Notes under the pieces: generated by a model | Seen by the model: the letters and a program-made list of their open reading frames with translations, nothing else | The model's database searches: none | Told to the model about the DNA's origin: nothing | Source of the DNA: Acidobacteriota bacterium | GTDB taxonomy: Bacteria; Acidobacteriota; Blastocatellia; Pyrinomonadales; Pyrinomonadaceae | Direction: 5' to 3' | NCBI GenBank assembly: GCA_031431415.1 | Contig: JANPDK010000096.1 | Location: 157 to 64,156, forward strand | DNA length: 64,000 bases | Made by a program: the position numbers and the translations under genes | In this document: positions 5,259-41,565 of the stretch, piece by piece | How positions within the stretch are numbered: position 1 is the stretch's first letter | Layout: each line of letters starts with the position of its first letter

Positions 5259-6926
5259 TCAAGGTAAAATCCTCCGATATTTATGCGTGATCGGCCTACG
5301 CCTGCCAACCCCGATCGCGTTCTTCGAAATGATCAACGTCGGCGGCAATTGCTGCCTTTTAAACTCATTCGCTGGATGCTCGACTTTGTTCAGGATCCAA
5401 AAAACTCGCTCGGCATCGTGGCCGGCAGCGATTATTTCGGCGGGGGAGGCTTTTTGTTCGAAGTACATTTGCAGGATCGGGTCCATCACTTCGTACGGCG
5501 GCAGGCTGTCCTGGTCGAATTGGTTCGGGGCAAGCTCGGCAGACGGTTTTTTGTCGATAATCTTGTTTGGAACGATCTCGCGTCCGGCTTTTTCGTTCAT
5601 GTGCCGGGCGATCTGCCAGACTTCGGTCTTTAGGACATCGCCAAGCACGGCGAGCCCTCCGTTGGTGTCGCCGTAGAGCGTGCAGTAGCCGACGGCGAGT
5701 TCGCTTTTGTTGCCGGTCGAAAGGAGCAATCTTCCCTCGGCATTTGATATCGCCATGAGGATCACGCCGCGAAGCCGCGATTGCATATTTTCGGCCGCCA
5801 GCGACTCGCCGCCCCTAGTCGGCTTGTGCAATTCCATCTGTTTGAGCAGAACTTCGAACGTATCTGAGATCGGCTCGATGCGGCTTTCGCAGCCGAGGTT
5901 TCGGATCAGCTCTTCGCTGTCCTTGATACTGCCCTGGGATGAGAATGGCGATGGCATCATTACGCATACCAGGTTTTCCGCACCCATCGCTTCACAGGCG
6001 AGTGCGGCCACGAGTGTTGAATCAATACCACCGCTCAAACCGAGAACAGCTTTCTTAAACCCATTCTTAGCCGCATAATCGCGTATCCCGAGCACCAACG
6101 CCTTGTGTATCGAATCGACCTCGCCGCCCGTAATTCCGCGGGCATCGGGCTTTCGCACATCGAGTTCGACCGTCTCGACAAACTCCTCAAACGCCGCCGC
6201 CTGCAAGATGATATCGCCCTGTTCGTCCGCGATCAGACTCGCTCCATCAAAGATAATGCCGTCGTTGCCACCAACCAGATTCACAAAAACGATCGGCCGC
6301 TTTTGTAGCTTGGCACGATGCGCGACCATGTCGCAGCGTAGTCGGATCTTGCCTTTGTTATAGGGCGAAGCATTCACCGAGACGATAATGTCGGCTCCCA
6401 TCGCCAGAACTTCGTCGGTCGGGTCGCTCTCGTACAAACGCTCCTTCCAGAACGTCTTGTCGTTCCAAAAATCCTCACAGACAACCACGCCAAGCTTTAC
6501 ACCATTGACCTCAAACAAACGCCTGTTCCGCCCGTCGCTCGGCTCAAAATATCGCGGATCGTCAAAAACATCGTATTCCGGCAGGAGAGTCTTATCCGCA
6601 AAACCAAGCAATTCTCCATTCGATATCACCGCCGCCGAATTGTATAAACGCCTGCCGTCCGTGTCGTCGTTCCGCCTGATCGTCCCCAAGACCGCCGTTA
6701 TACCAATCGTCGCCGGAATAATTTCCCTGAGCGGATCGCCCACATGCTCAATAATATCGCGGTCCTGAAACCAATCCTGCGAAGTATACCCATGCGTAAC
6801 AACCTCAGGAAAAACAACCAGATCCGAACCATCGCTCTTTGCTTTTTCAATAGCAGCGATGATCTTCGAAACATTCCCGGCAATATCGCCGTTGGTCGTG
6901 TTGATCTGGGCGATAGTGACTCGCAT
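5259..6926 (-). CDS. nadE: glutamine-dependent NAD+ synthetase
   Basis: N-terminal CN-hydrolase domain (RVTIAQINTTNGDIAGN..VVCEDFW) and C-terminal NAD synthetase domain (GLSGGIDSTLVAALA). The ORF-track start at 6971 lies in a repeat arm, so ATG 6926 (MRVTIAQ) is preferred. Confidence 0.9.
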   Translation of the reverse strand: MRVTIAQINTTNGDIAGNVSKIIAAIEKAKSDGSDLVVFPEVVTHGYTSQDWFQDRDIIEHVGDPLREIIPATIGITAVLGTIRRNDDTDGRRLYNSAAVISNGELLGFADKTLLPEYDVFDDPRYFEPSDGRNRRLFEVNGVKLGVVVCEDFWNDKTFWKERLYESDPTDEVLAMGADIIVSVNASPYNKGKIRLRCDMVAHRAKLQKRPIVFVNLVGGNDGIIFDGASLIADEQGDIILQAAAFEEFVETVELDVRKPDARGITGGEVDSIHKALVLGIRDYAAKNGFKKAVLGLSGGIDSTLVAALACEAMGAENLVCVMMPSPFSSQGSIKDSEELIRNLGCESRIEPISDTFEVLLKQMELHKPTRGGESLAAENMQSRLRGVILMAISNAEGRLLLSTGNKSELAVGYCTLYGDTNGGLAVLGDVLKTEVWQIARHMNEKAGREIVPNKIIDKKPSAELAPNQFDQDSLPPYEVMDPILQMYFEQKASPAEIIAAGHDAERVFWILNKVEHPANEFKRQQLPPTLIISKNAIGVGRRRPITHKYRRILP

Positions 6927-6933
6927 AGTAAAG

Positions 6934-7036
6934 TATTTACCGCAGAGACGCAGAGTCGCGGAGGAAAACAAAACCGCTGGAATAGACCAAATAAAATCTC
7001 ATTTGCTCTGCGTCTCGGCGTCTCTGCGGTTTTCAC
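6934..7036. repeat. word-repeat palindromic element (word GCAGAGA / TCTCTGC)
   Basis: TATTTACCGCAGAGACGCAGAGTCGCGGAGG ..loop.. TGCTCTGCGTCTCGGCGTCTCTGCGGTTTTCAC. The arms are reverse complements of each other. Confidence 0.8.
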
Positions 7037-22831: not shown

Positions 22832-24973
22832 TCAAAAGCTGCCGACGAATTCCTTTCGCTCGGATAAACCCTGCACCGCCAGCGAGATCGCGTCGATCTG
22901 GTCGTCGTGGGTACCGGTTGGGAAGGCGGCGGCTTCTTCGACGAGGTCGTGGTTCCAATGGCCGCGGATGAGGAAGACGCGTCCGGCCTCGGCGGCGGCC
23001 ATCCAGCCGATGGCCCGGGAGTGTTTGTCGCCACGCGGTTTTATCCCGCGAAGTGCACGTCCCAGAGTTTGCTTTTCGCGTCCGAGGTCCGCGAGAACGG
23101 CGTGGCCGTTGGCTGACAGCTCGACGATGTGCGATGCGCCGGGCTCGGCGGCGATACGTCCCAGGATATAACGCCGCTGCTCGGGATACTCGATCTTTCG
23201 CCGAAAACCGCCATCGATGTAAATATTCTGCTCCTTATCGACCGCCACACGAAAGCTTGCGGTGTAATCCGAAGTCGCCCCCGCCGAACAAGCCAGATCA
23301 TACGCCCGCACCCACTTCAACCCCGGCGGCGGCGCATTGATCACCTGCCTGAACCAGTCGCGTTTAAATATCCCACCCTCGGCCGGCGAAGGCCGTTGCT
23401 GATAGAGCGAAGCGAATGACCACGTGCCGATCTGTTCGCGGGTGCGTTCGAGTTCGGCAACCGGAAACCGTTCAGGCCAAAGAGCATCGCCGAAACGTCG
23501 GCCGAGTACATCAATCCCGCTCTTTGTCGCTGAAGGCGACAGAGATAATAGCCTGGGGTGAAGCCGTTTCGGCGGAACCCCAGGAACATCAGGTTCAGAG
23601 ACCTCCGCTCCCTGAAGGGGAGCAACTCGCCCCGCGCCTAGTGCGACCCCTTCAGGGTCGGGATCATCTTGGGCGGCAGACCCAGGGTTGCGGCCGTCGG
23701 CCTTACCCTGGGCGATTATCTTTGTCCCCTTCAGGGACATTTCTCCATTCTCGACTCTAAGATCGTTACCGTCTTCCCTTTCCTTCATTCTCAATTCTCC
23801 ATTCTCAATTCTCAATTGGTTCGCCGCTTCGGCGAGCGCCGGCAGATCAACCACTTCCCACTGCTCGCCGCCTTCGTCCATTTGCCGCAGCAATCTCCCG
23901 GCGAGGTCGTCTTCGTGCCAGCGGGTTTGGATGAGGACGACCTGGCCGCCGGGTTCGAGACGCGTGTAGAGGTCGTTGTTCCACCAATTCCAAACCTTGT
24001 CGCGATAGGTGAGCGAATTGGCCTGTTCGCGGTTTTTGACCGGGTCGTCAATGACGATCAGATTCGCACCGAATCCGGTAATGCCCGCTCCGACGCCAAC
24101 AGCCTTGAGCCCGCCGCCCATTGTGGTTTCCCATTCGGACTCGGTGTTCTTAAATCGAGGACGTGCGAATGGGAACGGCGAGCCGGACTCACCAGCAATT
24201 GCCGGAAGAGAAGAATTTTTGCCGCAGATGGGCGCAGATGACGCAGATCTAAGAGGTTTCTGATCTGCGCTTTCTGCGTTTATCTGCGGCAAAATCTCTT
24301 CTGCCGCCTCACGCTCCCGCGATAACATTGCGTCGTCGATCAGTACGCTCTTGATGCCGCGTGAGAATGTGTTCGCCAGCTTCTGGCCGTAGCTCGCGAT
24401 GATCGTGCGCATCGCCGGATCCTTTTTCAAACGCCACGCGGCATAGCGGACGGTGACGAGTTCGGATTTGCCGTGACGCGGCGGCATGAAGATCATCAGC
24501 CGCTTCAGATCGCCCTCGGTCATACGTCGCAAACGCTTGTAAAGATAAAGCTGATGCTTCGCCGTCCATGTCATATTCGGCGAAACAGATATGAGCCATT
24601 GTTTGAACTCGTCGTACTCTTCTTTCGCCGGATCTGGCGGAAGACAGGGAGTAGGGGAGACGGGGAGTTGGGGAGCAGGAACTGCGAACTCGGGTTGCAC
24701 AGCTTCCCCATCTCCCACACTCTCGTTCTCCCCTTCTCCCCCACTCCCCTTCTCCCCCTCTTCTTTGAGCAGCCCGTCCCAGCCGTAGCGTTCGATCCAG
24801 CCGGAGGCGGCTCGGCCGTTCTCGTAGCGTCGGTAGAGCATTCGGCGGTGAAAATCGTCGTAGCCGGCGGAGCGCATTTCGCGTTCGATCTGCTCGTGTT
24901 TTTTACCTCTGTATTTTATATAAAGCTCGCGACAAGCCTCGATACGCTCGAGGTTGCGTTCATGATCGGTCAT
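22832..24973 (-). CDS. phage terminase large-subunit-like protein, orphan, carrying in-frame repeat insertions
   Basis: Walker A IFMPPRHGKSELVT, Walker B NLIVIDDPVKN, VLIQTRWHEDDLAGRL, and C-terminal nuclease motif GTHDDQIDAISLA. The single 713-aa ORF spans three repeat elements. Confidence 0.8.
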   Translation of the reverse strand: MTDHERNLERIEACRELYIKYRGKKHEQIEREMRSAGYDDFHRRMLYRRYENGRAASGWIERYGWDGLLKEEGEKGSGGEGENESVGDGEAVQPEFAVPAPQLPVSPTPCLPPDPAKEEYDEFKQWLISVSPNMTWTAKHQLYLYKRLRRMTEGDLKRLMIFMPPRHGKSELVTVRYAAWRLKKDPAMRTIIASYGQKLANTFSRGIKSVLIDDAMLSREREAAEEILPQINAESADQKPLRSASSAPICGKNSSLPAIAGESGSPFPFARPRFKNTESEWETTMGGGLKAVGVGAGITGFGANLIVIDDPVKNREQANSLTYRDKVWNWWNNDLYTRLEPGGQVVLIQTRWHEDDLAGRLLRQMDEGGEQWEVVDLPALAEAANQLRIENGELRMKEREDGNDLRVENGEMSLKGTKIIAQGKADGRNPGSAAQDDPDPEGVALGAGRVAPLQGAEVSEPDVPGVPPKRLHPRLLSLSPSATKSGIDVLGRRFGDALWPERFPVAELERTREQIGTWSFASLYQQRPSPAEGGIFKRDWFRQVINAPPPGLKWVRAYDLACSAGATSDYTASFRVAVDKEQNIYIDGGFRRKIEYPEQRRYILGRIAAEPGASHIVELSANGHAVLADLGREKQTLGRALRGIKPRGDKHSRAIGWMAAAEAGRVFLIRGHWNHDLVEEAAAFPTGTHDDQIDAISLAVQGLSERKEFVGSF
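23521..23738. repeat. multi-hairpin palindrome, constant TGAAG/CTTCA pentaloops
   Basis: GTCGC tgaag GCGAC (23526-40). GCTCCC tgaag GGGAGC (23607-23). GACCC cttca GGGTC (23645-59). GTCCC cttca GGGAC (23724-38). Also long-range stems CCTGGGG/CCCCAGG and CCCAGGGT/ACCCTGGG. The left and right halves are reverse complements. Confidence 0.85.
23740..23814. repeat. 7-bp direct repeats ATTCTCM (x2, spacer, x4 tandem)
   Basis: Tandem ATTCTCA ATTCTCC ATTCTCA ATTCTCA at 23787-23814, and two more units at 23740-23753. In frame in the terminase-like ORF (RIENGELRM). Confidence 0.85.
24207..24300. repeat. word-repeat palindromic element (word CGCAGAT) inside the terminase-like ORF
   Basis: AAGAGAAGAATTTTTGCCGCAGATGGGCGCAGATGACGCAGATCTAAG..CTGATCTGCGCTTTCTGCGTTTATCTGCGGCAAAATCTCTT. 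Confidence 0.9.
24641..24765. repeat. word-repeat palindromic element (word GGGGAGA) inside the terminase-like ORF
   Basis: GGGAGTAGGGGAGACGGGGAGTTGGGGAGC ..loop.. CTTCCCCATCTCCCACAC..TCTCCCCTTCTCCCCCACTCCCCTTCTCCCCC. Confidence 0.8.
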
Positions 24974-24981
24974 AGGCGGGA

Positions 24982-25108
24982 GAAAAACTGATAACTAATA
25001 ACTAAACAATTGGTAACTGTTAGAAAAAAATGTGCCGTTTAGGATGAAGGTGAAGAGTTTCGTTCAATTCAGTTAATAGTTATTAGTGGGTAGTTGATAG
25101 TGGAAGAA
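24982..25108. repeat. word-repeat palindromic element (word TAACTAA)
   Basis: TGATAACTAATAACTAAACAATTGGTAACTGTTA ..loop.. TCAGTTAATAGTTATTAGTGGGTAGTTGATAGTG. Confidence 0.7.
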
Positions 25109-25224: not shown

Positions 25225-25324
25225 AAGAGTTTTGCCCGCGAATAACGCGAATAAAGACGAATAAAGAACTGGCAGAAGTTTTCTTTATTCGTTCTATTCG
25301 CGTTATTCGCGGGCAAAAACTCTT
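25225..25324. repeat. word-repeat palindromic element (word CGCGAAT)
   Basis: AAGAGTTTTGCCCGCGAATAACGCGAATAAAGACGAATAAAG..CTTTATTCGTTCTATTCGCGTTATTCGCGGGCAAAAACTCTT. Confidence 0.95.
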
Positions 25325-26832: not shown

Positions 26833-27000
26833 AAGAAAATTCACCGCAGATAGACGCAGATGGACACAGATAAGAAATTTTTCTGTTGTGGGCGATTAAC
26901 ATTTTCTTTAGTAAAATTCATAGACGGCGCTAGAAGCTGCTTGAAAATAGTCACTTCTTATCTGTGTTTATCTGCGTCCATCTGCGGCTAATTTCCTCTT
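26833..27000. repeat. word-repeat palindromic element (word CGCAGAT), long loop
   Basis: AAGAAAATTCACCGCAGATAGACGCAGATGGACACAGATAAG ..about 75-nt loop.. CTTATCTGTGTTTATCTGCGTCCATCTGCGGCTAATTTCCTCTT. Confidence 0.9.
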
Positions 27001-28063: not shown

Positions 28064-28153
28064 GAAATTTTGGCCGCGGATATGCGCCGATGGAGCGGAT
28101 AAGAAAAGATTCTTGATCTGCGCCATCTGCGCTCATCTGCGGCCAAATCTCTT
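28062..28153. repeat. word-repeat palindromic element (words CGCGGAT/CGCCGAT vs ATCTGCG)
   Basis: AAGAAATTTTGGCCGCGGATATGCGCCGATGGAGCGGATAAG..CTTGATCTGCGCCATCTGCGCTCATCTGCGGCCAAATCTCTT. It starts on the kinase stop codon. Confidence 0.9.
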
Positions 28154-32941: not shown

Positions 32942-33346
32942 CTATACAATATTTGCCTTTTCATAGTTTGCACGCACTACGGTTTTGATGTTGCCGCGCA
33001 CGTTGTAGTCGCCTTCGATCTCGACTTTTATCGGGTCACACGCCTGGACGAAGTCGTCGAGGATGAGATTGACGACGTGTTCGTGGAATATTTTGACGTC
33101 GCGGAACGAATTGATGTAGAGCTTGAGGCTCTTGAGCTCGACGCAGAGTTTGTTGGGTACATATTTCAGCCGGATCACGCCGAAATCGGGAAAATCTGAG
33201 AACGGACAGATCGCCGTGAATTCCGGTATCTCAAATTCCACCCAGATCTCTTTGCCCGGAAACTCGTAAGCAAAAGCGTCGAGCGGATAAAGATCCATCT
33301 CTTCACGCGGCGTCGGGAGGAAGTTTGTTGAGTCTATTGAGTTCAT
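32942..33346 (-). CDS. queF: NADPH-dependent 7-cyano-7-deazaguanine reductase
   Basis: [37 protein letters not shown]. The first 8 codons (MNSIDSTN) lie in a repeat arm, and an alternative start is Met17 (33298). Confidence 0.85.
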
Positions 33347-33770
33347 TGAGTTTATTGAGGTTCAGAATTTCGGAGATGCTGGGCCAGCGTCATGGACATA
33401 CGCGAGATCTCATCAAACAAGCCGTAAATTTCATCAAAGTCTTTCTGGTCAAGATAATCGAGATCGAGAGCAATATACAAGTGAGATTGAACTTCTGCGG
33501 CAGAGCCGTGCGCTTGAACTAGAAAGCTTGCAAAGTCATTATTGGTCCGTCGCCCATTTCCTTCGGCAATATTGGCCATTACCGAGACTGCCGCTCGGCG
33601 AATCTGATTGCAGAGCCCGAAATCCTTCGCGAACGCGGCATTTTTAGACACCTGATAAACGCGAACCGTTCCCACCCTCGCCTTTTGCCACGCCTTTATT
33701 TCCTCAAATCGTTTGAATCCCATATCTCAACAAACTCAATGAACTCAAAACTCAATAAACTCAACAAACT
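33323..33770. mobile_element. candidate cargo-bearing palindromic element: TTGAGTT-word arms bracketing a four-helix-bundle gene
   Basis: The left arm GTTTGTTGAGTCTATTGAGTTCATTGAGTTTATTGAGG (33323-33360) is the inverted complement of the right arm TCAACAAACTCAATGAACTCAAAACTCAATAAACTCAACAAACT (33727-33770). Confidence 0.5.
33352..33723 (-). CDS. four-helix-bundle protein (23S rRNA intervening-sequence protein family)
   Basis: [45 protein letters not shown] matches the TIGR02436-type pattern. Confidence 0.85.
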
Positions 33771-34590
33771 ATCTCACGTACCGATGTTTCCGGTTGCTCA
33801 TCTTCTTCACTCCGGCGAGGTTTTTGACTCCGCCTTCATGCAGCCGTGACAGTAGGTTGATAAATATATGCGCCGTCGCGTGCGCATCCGCGCTCGCCCG
33901 GTGGTGGTTGGTCAGGTCGAGCTTATAAAATTCCGCCATCGTTTTCAGCTTGTGATTGACCGTCTCGGGCACGAGTTTTCGCGACAATTGGACCGTACAC
34001 AGACACGGATTTGCGAGGCGATATTCTGGAAAAACGCGGCTGATCTCGTGGTTCAAAAACCGCATATCAAACCCCGAATTATGCGCCACCAGCACCGAAT
34101 CGCCTATAAATTCAAGAAAATCGACCGCGATCTCTACAAATTTCGGGGCCTCGGCCACCATTTCGTCGGTGATCCCGGTGAGCTGCGTGATGAATATCGG
34201 GATCGGTATCTCGGGGTTGACGAGCGTCTGAAACTCGTCCAACACCTCGCCGTTCTTCACCCTCCAAGCACCGATCTCGGTCACACGGCATGGTGGCGCC
34301 TTTGCTCCCGTAGTCTCGAGATCGAATACGACGAATCCCGTGTCCGACAGATCCTGATCGCCGTAACCTTTTTCAGTAAGCTCAACCGTATCACCATTTA
34401 ACGTCAGCCGAGGATCACGGTCGATAAGGTCCGAAACCAGCAAGGTCGCGAGCAACGGCTGTGGCTTTCTGATCTTCATCACAAAATCCACAACACTCAC
34501 AGCGGACGCCTTGCCGCCAAAAGACCGCAGCAGCGTCACCGTTTCGTTTATTAGCAATGACTCGGAAATTAGGTTAGGATACGGTGTCAC
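33769..34590 (-). CDS. DnaQ-like 3'-5' exonuclease with an N-terminal extension of about 90 aa
   Basis: Exo I FVVFDLETTGA, Exo II VAHNSGFDMRFL, Exo III HRASADAHATAHIF. Confidence 0.85.
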   Translation of the reverse strand: MTPYPNLISESLLINETVTLLRSFGGKASAVSVVDFVMKIRKPQPLLATLLVSDLIDRDPRLTLNGDTVELTEKGYGDQDLSDTGFVVFDLETTGAKAPPCRVTEIGAWRVKNGEVLDEFQTLVNPEIPIPIFITQLTGITDEMVAEAPKFVEIAVDFLEFIGDSVLVAHNSGFDMRFLNHEISRVFPEYRLANPCLCTVQLSRKLVPETVNHKLKTMAEFYKLDLTNHHRASADAHATAHIFINLLSRLHEGGVKNLAGVKKMSNRKHRYVR

Positions 34591-34606
34591 AAGAGAAGTT
34601 TAGCAG

Positions 34607-34637
34607 AGTTTTTTGAGTTTATTGAGTTGGTGAGTCG
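34607..34637. repeat. orphan TTGAGTT-word arm
   Basis: GAGTTTTTTGAGTTTATTGAGTTGGTGAGTC, in the same orientation as the 33323 arm. Confidence 0.7.
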
Positions 34638-34660
34638 CTTTTGACCGACCGGAATTTCAG

Positions 34661-35293
34661 ATGGACATCTTAGAGAAATTTAGAGAGACGAACGCGTTGC
34701 TCGAGGGGCATTTTATCTTGTCGAGCGGGCTGCACAGTCCGAAGTATTTGCAGTGTGCACTCGCGTTGCAGCGGCCCGAGGATGCTTTGTTGTTTGGGCG
34801 AATGATCGCGGAACGTCTTGTCGCAGCGGGGAACGATAGTGACCGGGGCTCGTCTCTAGAAAACGCACAAAGCCCCCTCGCTACCGCGTCGGGTACTGAC
34901 GCTGTTGCTTCGCCGGCGATCGGTGGGCTGGTGATCGGATTTGCCGTTGCGCAGGCATTAGGCGTTAGATTTCTCTGGACCGAGCGGCAGAATGGCGCGA
35001 TGACGTTTCGGCGGGGATTTACGCTGCGTGAAGGCGAGCGCATCTTGGTCGTCGAGGACGTGATAACAACCGGCGGCTCGACGCGCGAATGCATCGCCGC
35101 CCTCGAATCAAACGGCGGAAAGGTAGTCGCTGCAGCGTCAATCATCGACCGCTCGAATGGAACAGCCGATGTAGGAGTGCCGCGAATTTCGCTGGTCGAA
35201 ATGGACGTTCCAAGCTACTCGCCGGCCGATTGTCCAATGTGTGCCGCAGGCATCGTAGCTGTAAAACCGGGCAGTCGAGCTGCTGGTAAATAA
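34661..35293 (+). CDS. pyrE: orotate phosphoribosyltransferase
   Basis: ALLEGHFILSSGLHSPKYLQ and PRPP motif ILVVEDVITTGGS. It contains an extra low-complexity segment (NDSDRGSSLENAQSPLATASGTDAV). Confidence 0.9.
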   Translation: MDILEKFRETNALLEGHFILSSGLHSPKYLQCALALQRPEDALLFGRMIAERLVAAGNDSDRGSSLENAQSPLATASGTDAVASPAIGGLVIGFAVAQALGVRFLWTERQNGAMTFRRGFTLREGERILVVEDVITTGGSTRECIAALESNGGKVVAAASIIDRSNGTADVGVPRISLVEMDVPSYSPADCPMCAAGIVAVKPGSRAAGK

Positions 35294-35392
35294 GAAGTTT
35301 GCCCGCGAATAACGCGAATCTACACGAATAGAAGAAAAGATCTGAGATTCTTTATTCGTCTTCATTCGCGTTATTCGCGGGCAAAAATTCTT
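35292..35392. repeat. word-repeat palindromic element (word CGCGAAT)
   Basis: AAGAAGTTTGCCCGCGAATAACGCGAATCTACACGAATAGAAG..CTTTATTCGTCTTCATTCGCGTTATTCGCGGGCAAAAATTCTT. Confidence 0.95.
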
Positions 35393-36833: not shown

Positions 36834-36944
36834 GTTTTGCCCGCGAAATACGCGAAAAGAGCGAAAAAGGATTGTCTATATGGCGAATCTGCGGTGACTA
36901 GTCGATTTATATTCGCATTTTTCGTGTATTTCGCGGGCAAACAA
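36834..36944. repeat. word-repeat palindromic element (word CGCGAAA)
   Basis: GTTTTGCCCGCGAAATACGCGAAAAGAGCGAAAAAGG..TATATTCGCATTTTTCGTGTATTTCGCGGGCAAAC. Confidence 0.9.
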
Positions 36945-36990: not shown

Positions 36991-37047
36991 GTTCGCTGCT
37001 CTAAACGCTCTTATTTTTCGTAATTTTCGCGTATTTCGCGGGCAAAA
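36991..37047. repeat. orphan right arm (CGCGAAA family) abutting the truA start codon
   Basis: GTTCGCTGCTCTAAACGCTCTTATTTTTCGTAATTTTCGCGTATTTCGCGGGCAAAA, followed directly by ATG 37048. Confidence 0.8.
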
Positions 37048-37803: not shown

Positions 37804-38326
37804 GATTTTTTTTTGCCCGCGAAATACGCGAAAAGGACGAAAAATATTGCGTGATGTCGGAGTTGATCTGTAAGACGAGAGTTACAAGATTATTGGGGCT
37901 TGTTTTGAAGTGTACAAGCTGAAAGGGATCGGCTACACGGAACCGGTTTATCAGGAGTGTTTGAAGTATGAATTTGAGTTGCAGGGAATTCCGTTTGTTT
38001 CTCAGCCGACTTTAGAACTTGAATACAAAGGCAGGATCCTGGAACAGACGTTCAAACCGGATTTTATATGCTACGGAAAGATCGTCATCGAACTAAAAGC
38101 TCTCGAAAAATTAATAGATCCGCATCGTGCACAGGTGCTCAACTACCTGAATACGACCGGATTTGAACTGGGACTTTTAGTAAATTTCGGACATTTTCCA
38201 AGAATAGAATACGAGCGAATAGTTAACACCAAACGCCGTTCCTAAATAAGCGACAAAGAAACCGAAAGTCGCGAAAATTGAGTTTCTTCATTTAGCCCAT
38301 TTCGCGTATTTAGCGGGCAAAAAATA
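37802..38326. mobile_element. candidate cargo-bearing palindromic element: CGCGAAA-word arms bracketing a GxxExxY gene
   Basis: The left arm TTTTTTGCCCGCGAAATACGCGAAAAGGACGAAAAAT (37806-37846) closely matches the reverse complement of the right arm CATTTAGCCCATTTCGCGTATTTAGCGGGCAAAAAA (38287-38326). Confidence 0.55.
37910..38245 (+). CDS. GxxExxY protein (PD-(D/E)XK-like), N-terminus possibly disrupted
   Basis: GYTEPVY motif and KPDFICYGKIVIELKA..AQVLNYLNTTGFELGLLVNFG. The family-typical N-terminal helix (SYKIIGACFEV) is in frame upstream of GTG 37910 but is preceded by a TAA. An ATG at 37854 is in another frame. Confidence 0.7.
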   Translation: MYKLKGIGYTEPVYQECLKYEFELQGIPFVSQPTLELEYKGRILEQTFKPDFICYGKIVIELKALEKLIDPHRAQVLNYLNTTGFELGLLVNFGHFPRIEYERIVNTKRRS

Positions 38327-38328
38327 AA

Positions 38329-38643
38329 ATGCTTATCTACCACATAGTTTTACCCGAAGTGTGGGCGGCTTTTGACACCGGCCTTTACCAGCATGCGAGC
38401 CTCGATAGCGAAGGGTTTATTCATTGCAGTTTTGCCGATCAGCTTGACGGCGTGATCGAGCGTTATTATTCGAAAGAAAGCGAGGTCGTCGTGCTCGAGA
38501 TCGAAAGTGACAGGCTGATGTCGCGAATGATCAGAGAACCATCGACGAACAGCGAGATCTATCCGCACGTGTACGGGCCGATAAATCGCGATGCGATCGT
38601 TTCGGCGACCAAGAAGGATTTGCCCGCGAAACACGCGAAATAG
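38329..38643 (+). CDS. DUF952 domain protein
   Basis: IYHIV..VW..EGFIHCSFADQL pattern. The last 10 or so codons and the stop (KKDLPAKHAK*) are encoded by the next repeat arm. Confidence 0.8.
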   Translation: MLIYHIVLPEVWAAFDTGLYQHASLDSEGFIHCSFADQLDGVIERYYSKESEVVVLEIESDRLMSRMIREPSTNSEIYPHVYGPINRDAIVSATKKDLPAKHAK

Positions 38644-38720
38644 GCGAAATTTATAAAGAGGGTTGGGGAGTCTCGAATTCCTTATTTAGCTTTTTTCGCG
38701 TATTTCGCGGGCAAAAAATC
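38611..38720. repeat. word-repeat palindromic element (word CGCGAAA)
   Basis: AAGAAGGATTTGCCCGCGAAACACGCGAAATAGGCGAAATTT..TTATTTAGCTTTTTTCGCGTATTTCGCGGGCAAAAAATC, followed by ATG 38721. Confidence 0.9.
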
Positions 38721-39476: not shown

Positions 39477-39587
39477 GAGAAGAACTTTGGCCGCAGATCG
39501 ACGCAGATAAACGCAGATATGAAAAAGACCTAAACATCAGTTCTGATCTGTTTTTATCTGCGTTCATCTGCGGCTAAAATCTCCTTT
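39475..39587. repeat. word-repeat palindromic element (word CGCAGAT, exact 10-bp phasing)
   Basis: CGCAGAT at 39492, 39502 and 39512. ATCTG(CG) at 39546, 39556 and 39566. Flanks are AAGAGAAGAACTTTGGC and GCTAAAATCTCCTT. Confidence 0.95.
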
Positions 39588-41466: not shown

Positions 41467-41565
41467 AATTTAGCCGCAGATTTCCGCAGATGACGCGGAT
41501 CAGAATGAATTCTTGTTTAGATTCTTAATCTGCGCGATCCGCGTTAATCTGCGGCAAAAATTCTT
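41467..41565. repeat. word-repeat palindromic element (word CGCAGAT) abutting the aspS start
   Basis: TTAGCCGCAGATTTCCGCAGATGACGCGGATCAG..CTTAATCTGCGCGATCCGCGTTAATCTGCGGCAAAAATTCTT, followed by ATG 41566. Confidence 0.9.

Follow-up and report, generated by a model that had tools for sequence, protein, structure and literature searches.

A four-helix-bundle gene closed by complementary word arrays between dnaQ and queF in an Acidobacteriota bacterium, and its probable kinship with the intervening sequences of 23S rRNA

Intervening sequences (IVSs) that bear an open reading frame (ORF) have been known in 23S rRNA genes since the early 1990s, and we know of no explanation for their origin or for the role of their ORF. 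Free-standing genes annotated as "four helix bundle protein" number in the hundreds of thousands, with no function assigned. Here we describe one such gene, together with the arrays of short tandem words that close it on both sides, in a 64,000-nt stretch of contig JANPDK010000096.1 from an Acidobacteriota bacterium (the window, whose numbering is used throughout). The IVSs of Coxiella, Leptospira, Brucella and Azospirillum contain a sense-oriented PF05635 "S23p" ORF between terminal inverted repeats that form a long stem and whose arms are made of short tandem words, and the window element resembles them in its ORF and in the design of its ends. The Coxiella IVS has a 28-bp terminal stem with GACAGAT heptamer repeats, and cleavage by RNase III has been mapped by rapid amplification of cDNA ends (RACE) in that stem, at the first repeat (PMC4990558). 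Genes labelled 23S_rRNA_IVP have been reported wedged between cas genes, with flanking arrays unmentioned (PMC3936711), and full-text literature searches returned no description of flanking inverted word arrays around free-standing four-helix-bundle (4HB) genes.

Judged by its sequence, the window element is an IVS-type 4HB cassette of mRNA operons and belongs to a widespread family. We regard this architecture and the kinship with IVSs as highly probable. Our preferred reading as a whole, that of an IVS-type cassette in sense orientation whose arms form an RNA stem on the operon transcript, has in our estimate a probability of roughly 0.55. The cassette sits between dnaQ, which encodes a DnaQ-like exonuclease, and queF; all of the genes concerned are on the minus strand except the divergent pyrE. 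With its short stem extensions it spans 33314-33778 on the minus strand and is made up of the following parts:

33726-33770, minus strand: 5′ arm, five TTGAGTT-type words, the sense strand reading AGTTTGTTGAGTTTATTGAGTTTTGAGTTCATTGAGTTTGTTGAG
33352-33723, minus strand: cargo, the 4HB ORF of 372 nt and 123 amino acids, PF05635/TIGR02436, Avd/XCC0516-like
33322-33360, minus strand: 3′ arm, four AACTCA-type words, the sense strand reading CCTCAATAAACTCAATGAACTCAATAGACTCAACAAACT
33771-33778, minus strand: stem extension past the 5′ array, within the last dnaQ codons (CGTGAGAT), from the inverted pair and the minimum free energy (MFE) fold
33314-33321, minus strand: stem extension past the 3′ array, within queF codons 9-11, pairing with 33771-33778 in the inverted pair and the MFE fold; this extension may be fortuitous

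The right-hand array (33726-33770) is the reverse complement of the left-hand array, which reads AGTTTGTTGAGTCTATTGAGTTCATTGAGTTTATTGAGG on the plus strand (33322-33360). The 5′ arm begins within the dnaQ stop codon TAG and finishes 2 nt short of the 4HB ATG, while the 3′ arm holds the 4HB stop codon (33352-33354), the queF ATG (33344-33346) and queF codons 1-8. An inverted-repeat search returned arm pairs of 22-30 nt that are 87-96% complementary, with the caveat that the register of tandem-word alignments is ambiguous; the pairs are 33314-33343 with 33749-33778 (30 nt, 87%), 33337-33359 with 33726-33748, and 33749-33770 with 34607-34628. The last of these involves a third array, upstream of dnaQ, and all three arrays have a period of 9 in Tandem Repeats Finder (TRF). 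There are 22 occurrences of TTGAGTT in the window, whereas shuffles give 8.0 ± 3.2; the three array clusters account for 8 of the 22. When the 130 nt to either side of the 4HB ORF were compared, the best local inverted alignment scored 27.5 (z = 16.9 against shuffles), whereas the same flank geometry shifted by 1-1.5 kb within the window scored 7-9; the word palindrome around the 4HB gene is therefore real and not due to chance. A preliminary description of this DNA had placed the 4HB gene in the loop of a TTGAGTT-word palindrome, and arms of 39-45 nt do enclose exactly 33352-33723. It was also right that an arm encodes the C-terminus and stop of the 4HB gene, since the last two codons (PQ) and the stop lie in the 3′ arm.

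The cargo protein matches PF05635 over residues 7-109 with 122.9 bits (cut-off 33.8; E 8e-36) and TIGR02436 with 112.7 bits (cut-off 24; E 1e-32), a protein family common to free-standing TIGR02436 genes and to Avd, the accessory protein of diversity-generating retroelements (DGRs). Its apparent relatives in the PDB are 2GSC (XCC0516; E 1e-12) and 2RLD (E 2e-4), which are pentameric four-helix bundles. The RxxxSxxxNxxE motif described for the family (PMC3936711) is invariant in our 4HB alignment (A1). Nonsynonymous divergence (dN) of the 4HB gene is 0.06-0.13, synonymous divergence (dS) has reached saturation, and dN/dS does not exceed 0.06 wherever computable; low dN with saturated dS indicates that the protein is under purifying selection. 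Despite the saturated synonymous sites in the ORF, 48 of the 52 nt of the 3′ arm and junction are identical between the window and an orthologous locus, L006. The C-terminal tails of the homologues in alignment A1 (PQ, TQ, GTQGTQRTQ) are translated array words. The genes adjoining the cassette are dnaQ, queF, pyrE and a DUF5678 gene; neither a reverse transcriptase nor a template/variable repeat pair of the DGR kind was present in the gene-by-gene flanks, the window itself not having been searched for reverse transcriptase.

The same architecture recurs throughout the clade. Species-representative genomes were scanned with alignment A1, which gave 80 loci among the matches listed, nearly all of them metagenome-assembled genomes (MAGs) of Pyrinomonadaceae/Blastocatellia. 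The 82 testable 4HB genes comprise 79 from the 80 listed loci (two more lie at contig ends) together with those of the window, L006 and L016. The preliminary description had left it to be seen whether other 4HB genes carry flanking inverted word arms: in 71 of the 82 they do, with a flank inverted score of at least 13 (median 21), while displaced controls all scored 5-12. A stricter control used 369 real neighbouring ORFs of the same loci, for which the median was 8 and the 95th percentile 11.5, and of which 15 (∼4%) reached 13. Those of the 15 that were checked proved to be five further small cassette genes and four host genes lying between two elements, and two of the five were confirmed as divergent PF05635 paralogues with ATTACGA-word arms.

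Every arm in the clade consists of tandem words that repeat every 7-10 nt. An (A/G)AGT core is common to the 5′ words and its complement to the 3′ words, and G outnumbers C about 3-fold in the 5′ arms (831 against 285). The words themselves vary by cassette, and include TTGAGTT, GGAGTCT, GAGAGTC, GCAGAGTT, GGAAGTCT and ATTACGA. When each 3′ arm was scored against its own 5′ arm the median was 21, compared with 8 against the arms of other cassettes, and the true partner ranked among the top three in 47 of 82 cases. This match to the cassette's own arm, in spite of the varied words, indicates that complementarity persists even as the words themselves change. By a crude ORF heuristic, 69 of 79 cassettes point the same way as the gene upstream of them and 60 of 77 the same way as the gene downstream.

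The design also extends to other phyla. A tblastn search of plasmids and chromids yielded 24 records, from which 12 4HB genes of cyanobacteria, Bacteroidota and Azospirillum were inspected, and clear inverted tandem-word arms were present in 9 of the 12. The words seen were:

Nostoc: arms of GGGAAAA, GGGAACA and CAGGAGT words
Anabaena: arms of GGTGACA words, between cas6 and cas4
Calothrix: arms of GGGTGTA words
Geminocystis: arms of GGGAAAA words
Stanieria: arms of GGCAGAA words
Riemerella: arms of AAGGTTY words
Azospirillum (L169): arms of GAGGACGGATGACAGAGGACGGAGGACAGA and its reverse complement, with GGACAGA/GGACGGA words

The three that do not conform are L168, which is doubtful, L172, in which the 5′ side is interrupted by an ISL3 transposase gene, and the cyanobacterial L167, discussed below. 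The position between cas6 and cas4 was found in both Anabaena and Pseudanabaena, in line with the report of such genes between cas genes.

The Azospirillum locus L169 provides the bridge to rRNA. It is a complete 23S rRNA gene (positions 1-2925 of the Rfam large-subunit (LSU) model) in which the 4HB ORF is inserted after ..TACCGAAGCTGCGG, a segment that we take to be helix 45 by the E. coli sequence. Its word arms mean that a genuine 23S IVS shares the word-array design. Together with the GACAGAT stem of Coxiella, which RNase III cuts (PMC4990558), they bear out the link to 23S IVSs suggested in the preliminary description. There are also differences. The 23S IVSs occupy helix 9, 25 or 45, whereas the window element lies in an mRNA operon, dnaQ-queF, and no rRNA or other Rfam family was found in the window; because it is outside any rRNA gene, we file it as a variant of the 23S IVS kind. 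Unlike in the IVSs, the 3′ arm in the window is translated, as the 4HB tail and as the queF N-terminus. RNase III excision is established for Coxiella and is an analogy here.

The host genes around the cassette, and the array upstream of dnaQ, are as follows:

32942-33346, minus strand: queF (preQ1 synthase), host gene, TIGR03139
33769-34590, minus strand: dnaQ, DnaQ-like DEDD/RNase_T exonuclease, host gene, PF00929 (E 3e-39)
34607-34637, minus strand: array upstream of dnaQ (the third arm), reading ACTCACCAACTCAATAAACTCAAAAAACT in dnaQ sense, solo in the window
34661, start of pyrE, divergent from dnaQ

We mapped pyrE, dnaQ, queF and 4HB genes in 31 orthologous loci (L001-L031) and a fragment (L034) from metagenomes and assemblies, most of them MAG fragments, and compared the junction and queF N-terminus in 20 of the orthologous loci. 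The synteny, divergent pyrE and dnaQ followed by queF, is kept across these loci. Empty sites, for which the preliminary description had suggested comparing relatives, were found: the dnaQ stop overlaps the queF start (tATGttagaTGA), with no cassette, in at least nine loci (L005, L007, L008, L009, L016, L017, L019, L021 and L022), where the queF N-terminus reads MLDERMPEGVNKQQLDIRPTPREEM. From this comparison the overlapping junction is taken as the ancestral state. Of the orthologous loci examined, only the window, L006 and L088 carry a 4HB gene at the dnaQ/queF junction, and they share TTGAGTT arms and a right-hand junction at which ..ACTCAACAAAC is followed directly by TT(C/A)(C/T)C(T/C)CCGACGCC. 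The queF product of all three starts with MNSI(D/N)STN(F/L)(L/S)PTPR..EM, the cassette having swapped the first ∼18 ancestral queF codons for ∼10 of its own, of which ∼8 are encoded by the array. That the element supplies the queF start codon, as the preliminary description held, is thus apparent from the contrast between the MLDERMPEGVNKQQLDIRPTPREEM start of relatives and that of the window, L006 and L088.

The presence of the cassette does not follow the relatedness of the host genes. The closest dnaQ relatives of the window (L001, 91.6% identity; L027, 89%; L013, 88.6%) have a different hairpin element between dnaQ and queF and no cassette, and L007, whose dnaQ is 91% identical to that of L006, has no cassette and retains the ancestral overlap. 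The compared loci show the cassette to be a derived, patchy insertion at the dnaQ/queF junction, with a distribution at odds with relatedness, and this junction is an insertion hot spot. Since ∼40 nt of queF were deleted by the insertion, reversion is impossible, and irreversibility combined with a patchy distribution leaves two possibilities, that the cassette was acquired more than once at one and the same nucleotide or that the allele was replaced laterally.

Other elements were seen at the same junction. At least five unrelated hairpin elements occupy the dnaQ stop/queF start junction in L010, L011, L013, L015, L018, L020, L023 and L027, each flanked on both sides by a ∼9-12-nt TATGTTAGA(TGA) that resembles a target duplication, and in L004 only a 17-nt remnant is present. 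Several assemblies of close relatives end within ∼100 nt past the dnaQ stop (L001, end 5766-5878; also the ends of L002 and L003), and these breaks are consistent with repeat elements fragmenting short-read assemblies.

The third array (34607-34637) calls for a different interpretation. It has the orientation of the left array, as the preliminary description stated, and beyond it come CTGCTAAACT, 6 nt and the GTG start of dnaQ. It is not an end of the cassette, as it is kept where no cassette is present: in ∼14 orthologous loci with no 4HB gene there, the ∼69-nt pyrE-dnaQ spacer carries 9-nt phased AACTC(A/T) words that end in a conserved CTGCTAAACT, 6-8 nt ahead of the dnaQ start. It is for this array only that conservation without the gene, which the preliminary description had named as evidence against its view, was found. 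In L016, L085, L086 and L088b, a 4HB gene does lie in the pyrE-dnaQ spacer, pointing to pyrE. Its 5′ arm is the array nearest dnaQ, and its 3′ arm, an inverted copy on the pyrE side, is translated as a new pyrE N-terminus, MNSTNSTNS-ILEKF; in L016 the cassette removed part of the pyrE 5′ end. The preliminary description had presented the exonuclease gene as a second flanked unit. We considered dnaQ as a second cargo and rejected it, as dnaQ is a core gene with conserved pyrE/dnaQ/queF synteny and its upstream array occurs in loci that have no cassette there. Instead, dnaQ belongs to the host and is flanked by two cassette sites, pyrE/dnaQ and dnaQ/queF, which is why it looks bracketed, and the ORF control likewise flags dnaQ in the window, L006 and L088.

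Cassettes may be stacked at these sites. In L088 (1224-2860) there are 4HB genes on both sides of dnaQ, encoding proteins that are ∼60% alike within shared arms. L086 (685-2860) combines a TTGAGTT cassette at pyrE/dnaQ, a cargo-less ATTACGA hairpin at dnaQ/queF and an ATTACGA 4HB cassette after queF.

Two minor features were noted in the same region. A (C/T)TG(C/A)TAAA(C/A)T motif precedes the dnaQ start by 6-12 nt in nearly all orthologues (34591-34606 in the window), with no Shine-Dalgarno sequence between, and resembles an extended -10 element (TGnTAAACT), which would suggest that the dnaQ mRNA is leaderless. The window pyrE contains a 21-amino-acid in-frame insertion, AAGNDSDRGSSLENAQSPLAT (34820-34890), that L004 and L006 do not have, while L001 has a different insertion of 13 amino acids in the same place. 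The DNA of the window insertion includes GGGAACGATAGTGAC, the arm motif of the dnaQ/queF hairpin of L023, which suggests a decayed palindromic element, in frame, like a Rickettsia palindromic element (RPE); a search at seed 6 detected no inverted repeat there.

The preliminary description had proposed that short word hairpins in this DNA are cargo-less relatives of the cassette, and two kinds of locus agree with this. In L086, the short ATTACGA hairpin at dnaQ/queF lies 430 nt from an ATTACGA-armed 4HB paralogue after queF, and in L128, L162, L116 and L141 a short hairpin made of the cassette's own words stands directly beside the cassette. The second kind concerns a GxxExxY gene (TIGR04256/PF13366) at 37874-38245 on the plus strand of the window, with an apparent N-terminal frameshift, which is enclosed by inverted CGCGAAA-word arms at 37806-37842 and 38291-38327. 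In the orthologous truA/DUF952 spacer of L001 (2210-2335), the 91.6% relative, the same two arms enclose a 28-nt loop and no cargo, and the pairs at the stem base have changed in a compensatory manner (GCC..GGC against AAC..GTT). Cargo may have been lost, or it may have been inserted into a hairpin. A second Acidobacteriota GxxExxY gene, in L103, has CACAAAG-word arms. GxxExxY as a second general cargo is a tentative extension at most: it fits the two Acidobacteriota cases (the window and L103), but clear arms were seen in only 1-2 of 6 plasmid examples. Some plasmid GxxExxY genes also lie within operons, for example fabD/fabG in Sphingomonas.

What the arms might do can be set out on the operon transcript. 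There they would pair into a stem of ∼40 bp with the ORF looped out, long enough for RNase III and, by homology of design with the 23S IVSs, a candidate RNase III substrate. The stem would place the dnaQ stop codon beside the queF start codon, and downstream translation may stay coupled to upstream translation, making the insertion tolerable in a tight operon. Coupling may persist because the 4HB stop and the downstream start are close together inside the 3′ arm, sharing an ATGA in L006, L016, L086 and L088 and standing 8 nt apart in the window. When the 491-nt sense transcript was folded, arm-to-arm pairing across the ORF appeared in the MFE and centroid structures alike (-155.6 kcal/mol, z = -2.6). 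Further indications at the RNA level are the co-orientation of most cassettes with their neighbouring genes, the compensatory stem changes of the GxxExxY element and the 48/52 identity of the 3′ arm and junction with L006. A consensus scan of 33200-34750 for promoters and terminators found no promoter-like site, and its two terminator-like matches lie inside coding sequence and are at chance level. We would give a functional RNA stem about even odds, whereas cleavage of the window stem specifically by RNase III, for which the argument is by analogy, seems somewhat doubtful.

A number of observations weigh against the RNA-based reading. Stem formation and RNase III cleavage are argued from analogy and folding, and an RNase III cut between dnaQ and queF would sever the operon mRNA, a result whose benefit is not obvious. 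About 13% of the 4HB genes in the clade have no recognisable 3′ arm, and L167 has arrays on both sides of the gene that are direct instead of inverted. In 78 cassettes, arm mismatches that would be G:U in the sense RNA numbered 121 against 98 for A:C (p = 0.14), and with no significant G:U excess there is room for a DNA-level cause of the complementarity. Long-range pairing in MFE folds reached at least 20 pairs in 75 of 82 cassettes and in 48 of 154 displaced controls, with medians of 46 and 12 pairs, respectively; because 31% of controls reach 20 pairs, this measure discriminates poorly. No recombinase was found for the 4HB cassette, and comparison with empty sites shows no target-site duplication, ∼40 nt of queF having been replaced instead.

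The alternative with most to recommend it is that the arms act on DNA, as terminal inverted repeats of a non-autonomous mobile element similar to a foldback element or a miniature inverted-repeat transposable element (MITE), with the RNA stem as a by-product, and that a trans-acting recombinase or template switching during replication keeps the arms alike. This would account for cassette presence and absence out of step with the relatedness of flanking genes, for the same word class at two neighbouring sites and at several unrelated ones, for the existence of cargo-less copies, and for the lack of significant strand bias in the mismatch test. It also fits the TATGTTAGA sequences on both sides of the other dnaQ/queF hairpins, which are like target duplications, and the 4HB protein of L088b, which is 60% identical to that of the window and yet lies between the same TTGAGTT arms as the 85% type, suggesting exchange through the arms. 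However, the 4HB cassette has no such duplication and deleted ∼40 nt of queF and, in L016, a stretch at the 5′ end of pyrE. It has no accompanying transposase or recombinase gene in the 64-kb window and MAG fragments covered, and arms that differ in sequence between cassettes offer no single recognition sequence for a recombinase. The strong co-orientation with host transcription would be unexpected for a purely DNA-level element, and the same architecture within 23S rRNA is processed as RNA (PMC4990558). We consider a primarily DNA-level role unlikely but a serious rival, and one that is compatible with the RNA reading.

A second alternative treats the AACTCA arrays as AC-rich leader or promoter modules for the host gene that follows (dnaQ, queF or, in L016, pyrE), with the TTGAGTT array as another such module facing the opposite way and the palindrome without function. 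The position of the arrays agrees with this, as an AACTCA array precedes the dnaQ start in the ∼14 loci without a 4HB gene, ending in CTGCTAAACT at 6-8 nt from the start, and the 3′ arm precedes or contains the queF or pyrE start in the window, L006, L016, L086 and L088. It leaves unexplained, though, why a complementary and co-varying array stands on the other side of 71 of 82 4HB genes, it does not apply to the 23S rRNA gene, where the same design has nothing to translate downstream, and the consensus scan found no sigma-70-like promoter in the region; we rate it as quite improbable. That low-complexity tandem repeats in neighbouring spacers gave rise to the palindrome by chance, which could be argued since tandem arrays are common in the window and any arrays of complementary words score as inverted repeats, is refuted by z = 16.9, by 71 of 82 genes against ∼4% of control ORFs, and by recurrence across phyla.

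The preferred reading, an IVS-type cassette with an RNA stem, can be further defined against other repetitive elements. Short words and hairpins that fill intergenic spacers are familiar from the short tandemly repeated repetitive (STRR) heptamer arrays of cyanobacteria, repetitive extragenic palindromic (REP) sequences and bacterial interspersed mosaic elements (BIMEs), Correia elements and RPEs, and Correia elements are RNase III substrates. In cyanobacteria the 4HB arms are themselves heptamer arrays of the STRR type (GGTGACA, GGGAACA, GGGAAAA). Unlike in all of these elements, the arrays described here form a complementary pair around one gene family and their words vary from copy to copy. 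They also lack the GTAG-type head motif common to the copies of RAYT-mobilised REP and BIME elements, and the words are different (TTGAGTT, GGAGTCT, ATTACGA, CGCGAAA, CGCAGAT). With MITEs the cassettes have in common inverted ends, the existence of short copies with no cargo, and an occurrence that is patchy among orthologous sites, whereas they differ in having neither a target-site duplication nor an associated transposase, in arms that are internally repetitive and specific to each copy, and in a cargo that is not a transposase.

Taken together, PF05635 genes, and perhaps GxxExxY genes, could be the cargo of an unrecognised class of bacterial element, for which "IVS cassette" would be a suitable name; with all of its parts, this joint proposal is speculative and on balance doubtful. 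If it is true, IVS cassettes would be small ORFs closed by self-complementary word arrays, resident in rRNA helices and at operon junctions, that move or exchange through their arms. They would loop out of the transcript and donate a start codon to the downstream gene, keeping the host operon working, and would decay into the cargo-less word hairpins of Acidobacteriota and the STRR-type heptamer arrays of cyanobacteria. Recognition or upkeep of the arms would fall to the Avd-like protein. Apart from this proposal, the shared architecture itself, a sense ORF between complementary word arrays, links subjects that tend to be considered separately: IVSs, orphan genes of the "S23p"/Avd-like kind, and the short word repeats of intergenic spacers. 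It also makes questions about IVSs testable outside rRNA, including RNase III excision from mRNA, translational coupling, binding of the arms by the 4HB protein, and spread. For annotation, the architecture accounts for odd N- and C-terminal extensions on flanking genes and for contig breaks beside 4HB genes.

The window also contains at least 10 further short hairpins of the same design, mostly 3-25 nt past stop codons within an extended series of plus-strand genes. The short elements are at:

6939-7030, short hairpin element
24209-24302, short hairpin element
25230-25318, short hairpin element
26834-26997, short hairpin element
28069-28147, short hairpin element
35298-35385, short hairpin element
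36836-36941, short hairpin element
37014-37047, short hairpin element, solo arm
38619-38715, short hairpin element
39486-39578, short hairpin element
41469-41559, short hairpin element

Rfam searches at gathering and E-value thresholds assigned no family to the arms or the short hairpins, and only sub-threshold resemblance to miRNA precursors was seen. Most of the short hairpins consist of a TTT(G/A)GCC head, three phased words, a loop of 12-80 nt and the complement, and are located shortly ahead of the following start codon; the words used are CGCGAAT/A, CGCAGAT, CGCAGAG and CGCGGAT. A run of T precedes the stem and a run of A follows it, which is the reverse of an intrinsic terminator. Separately, at 24642-24761, inverted G-rich and C-rich arrays (GGGGAGT/AGACGGGG against TCCCC/CTCCCC) lie inside the minus-strand ORF 22832-24994, and are either low-complexity coding sequence or another in-frame element.

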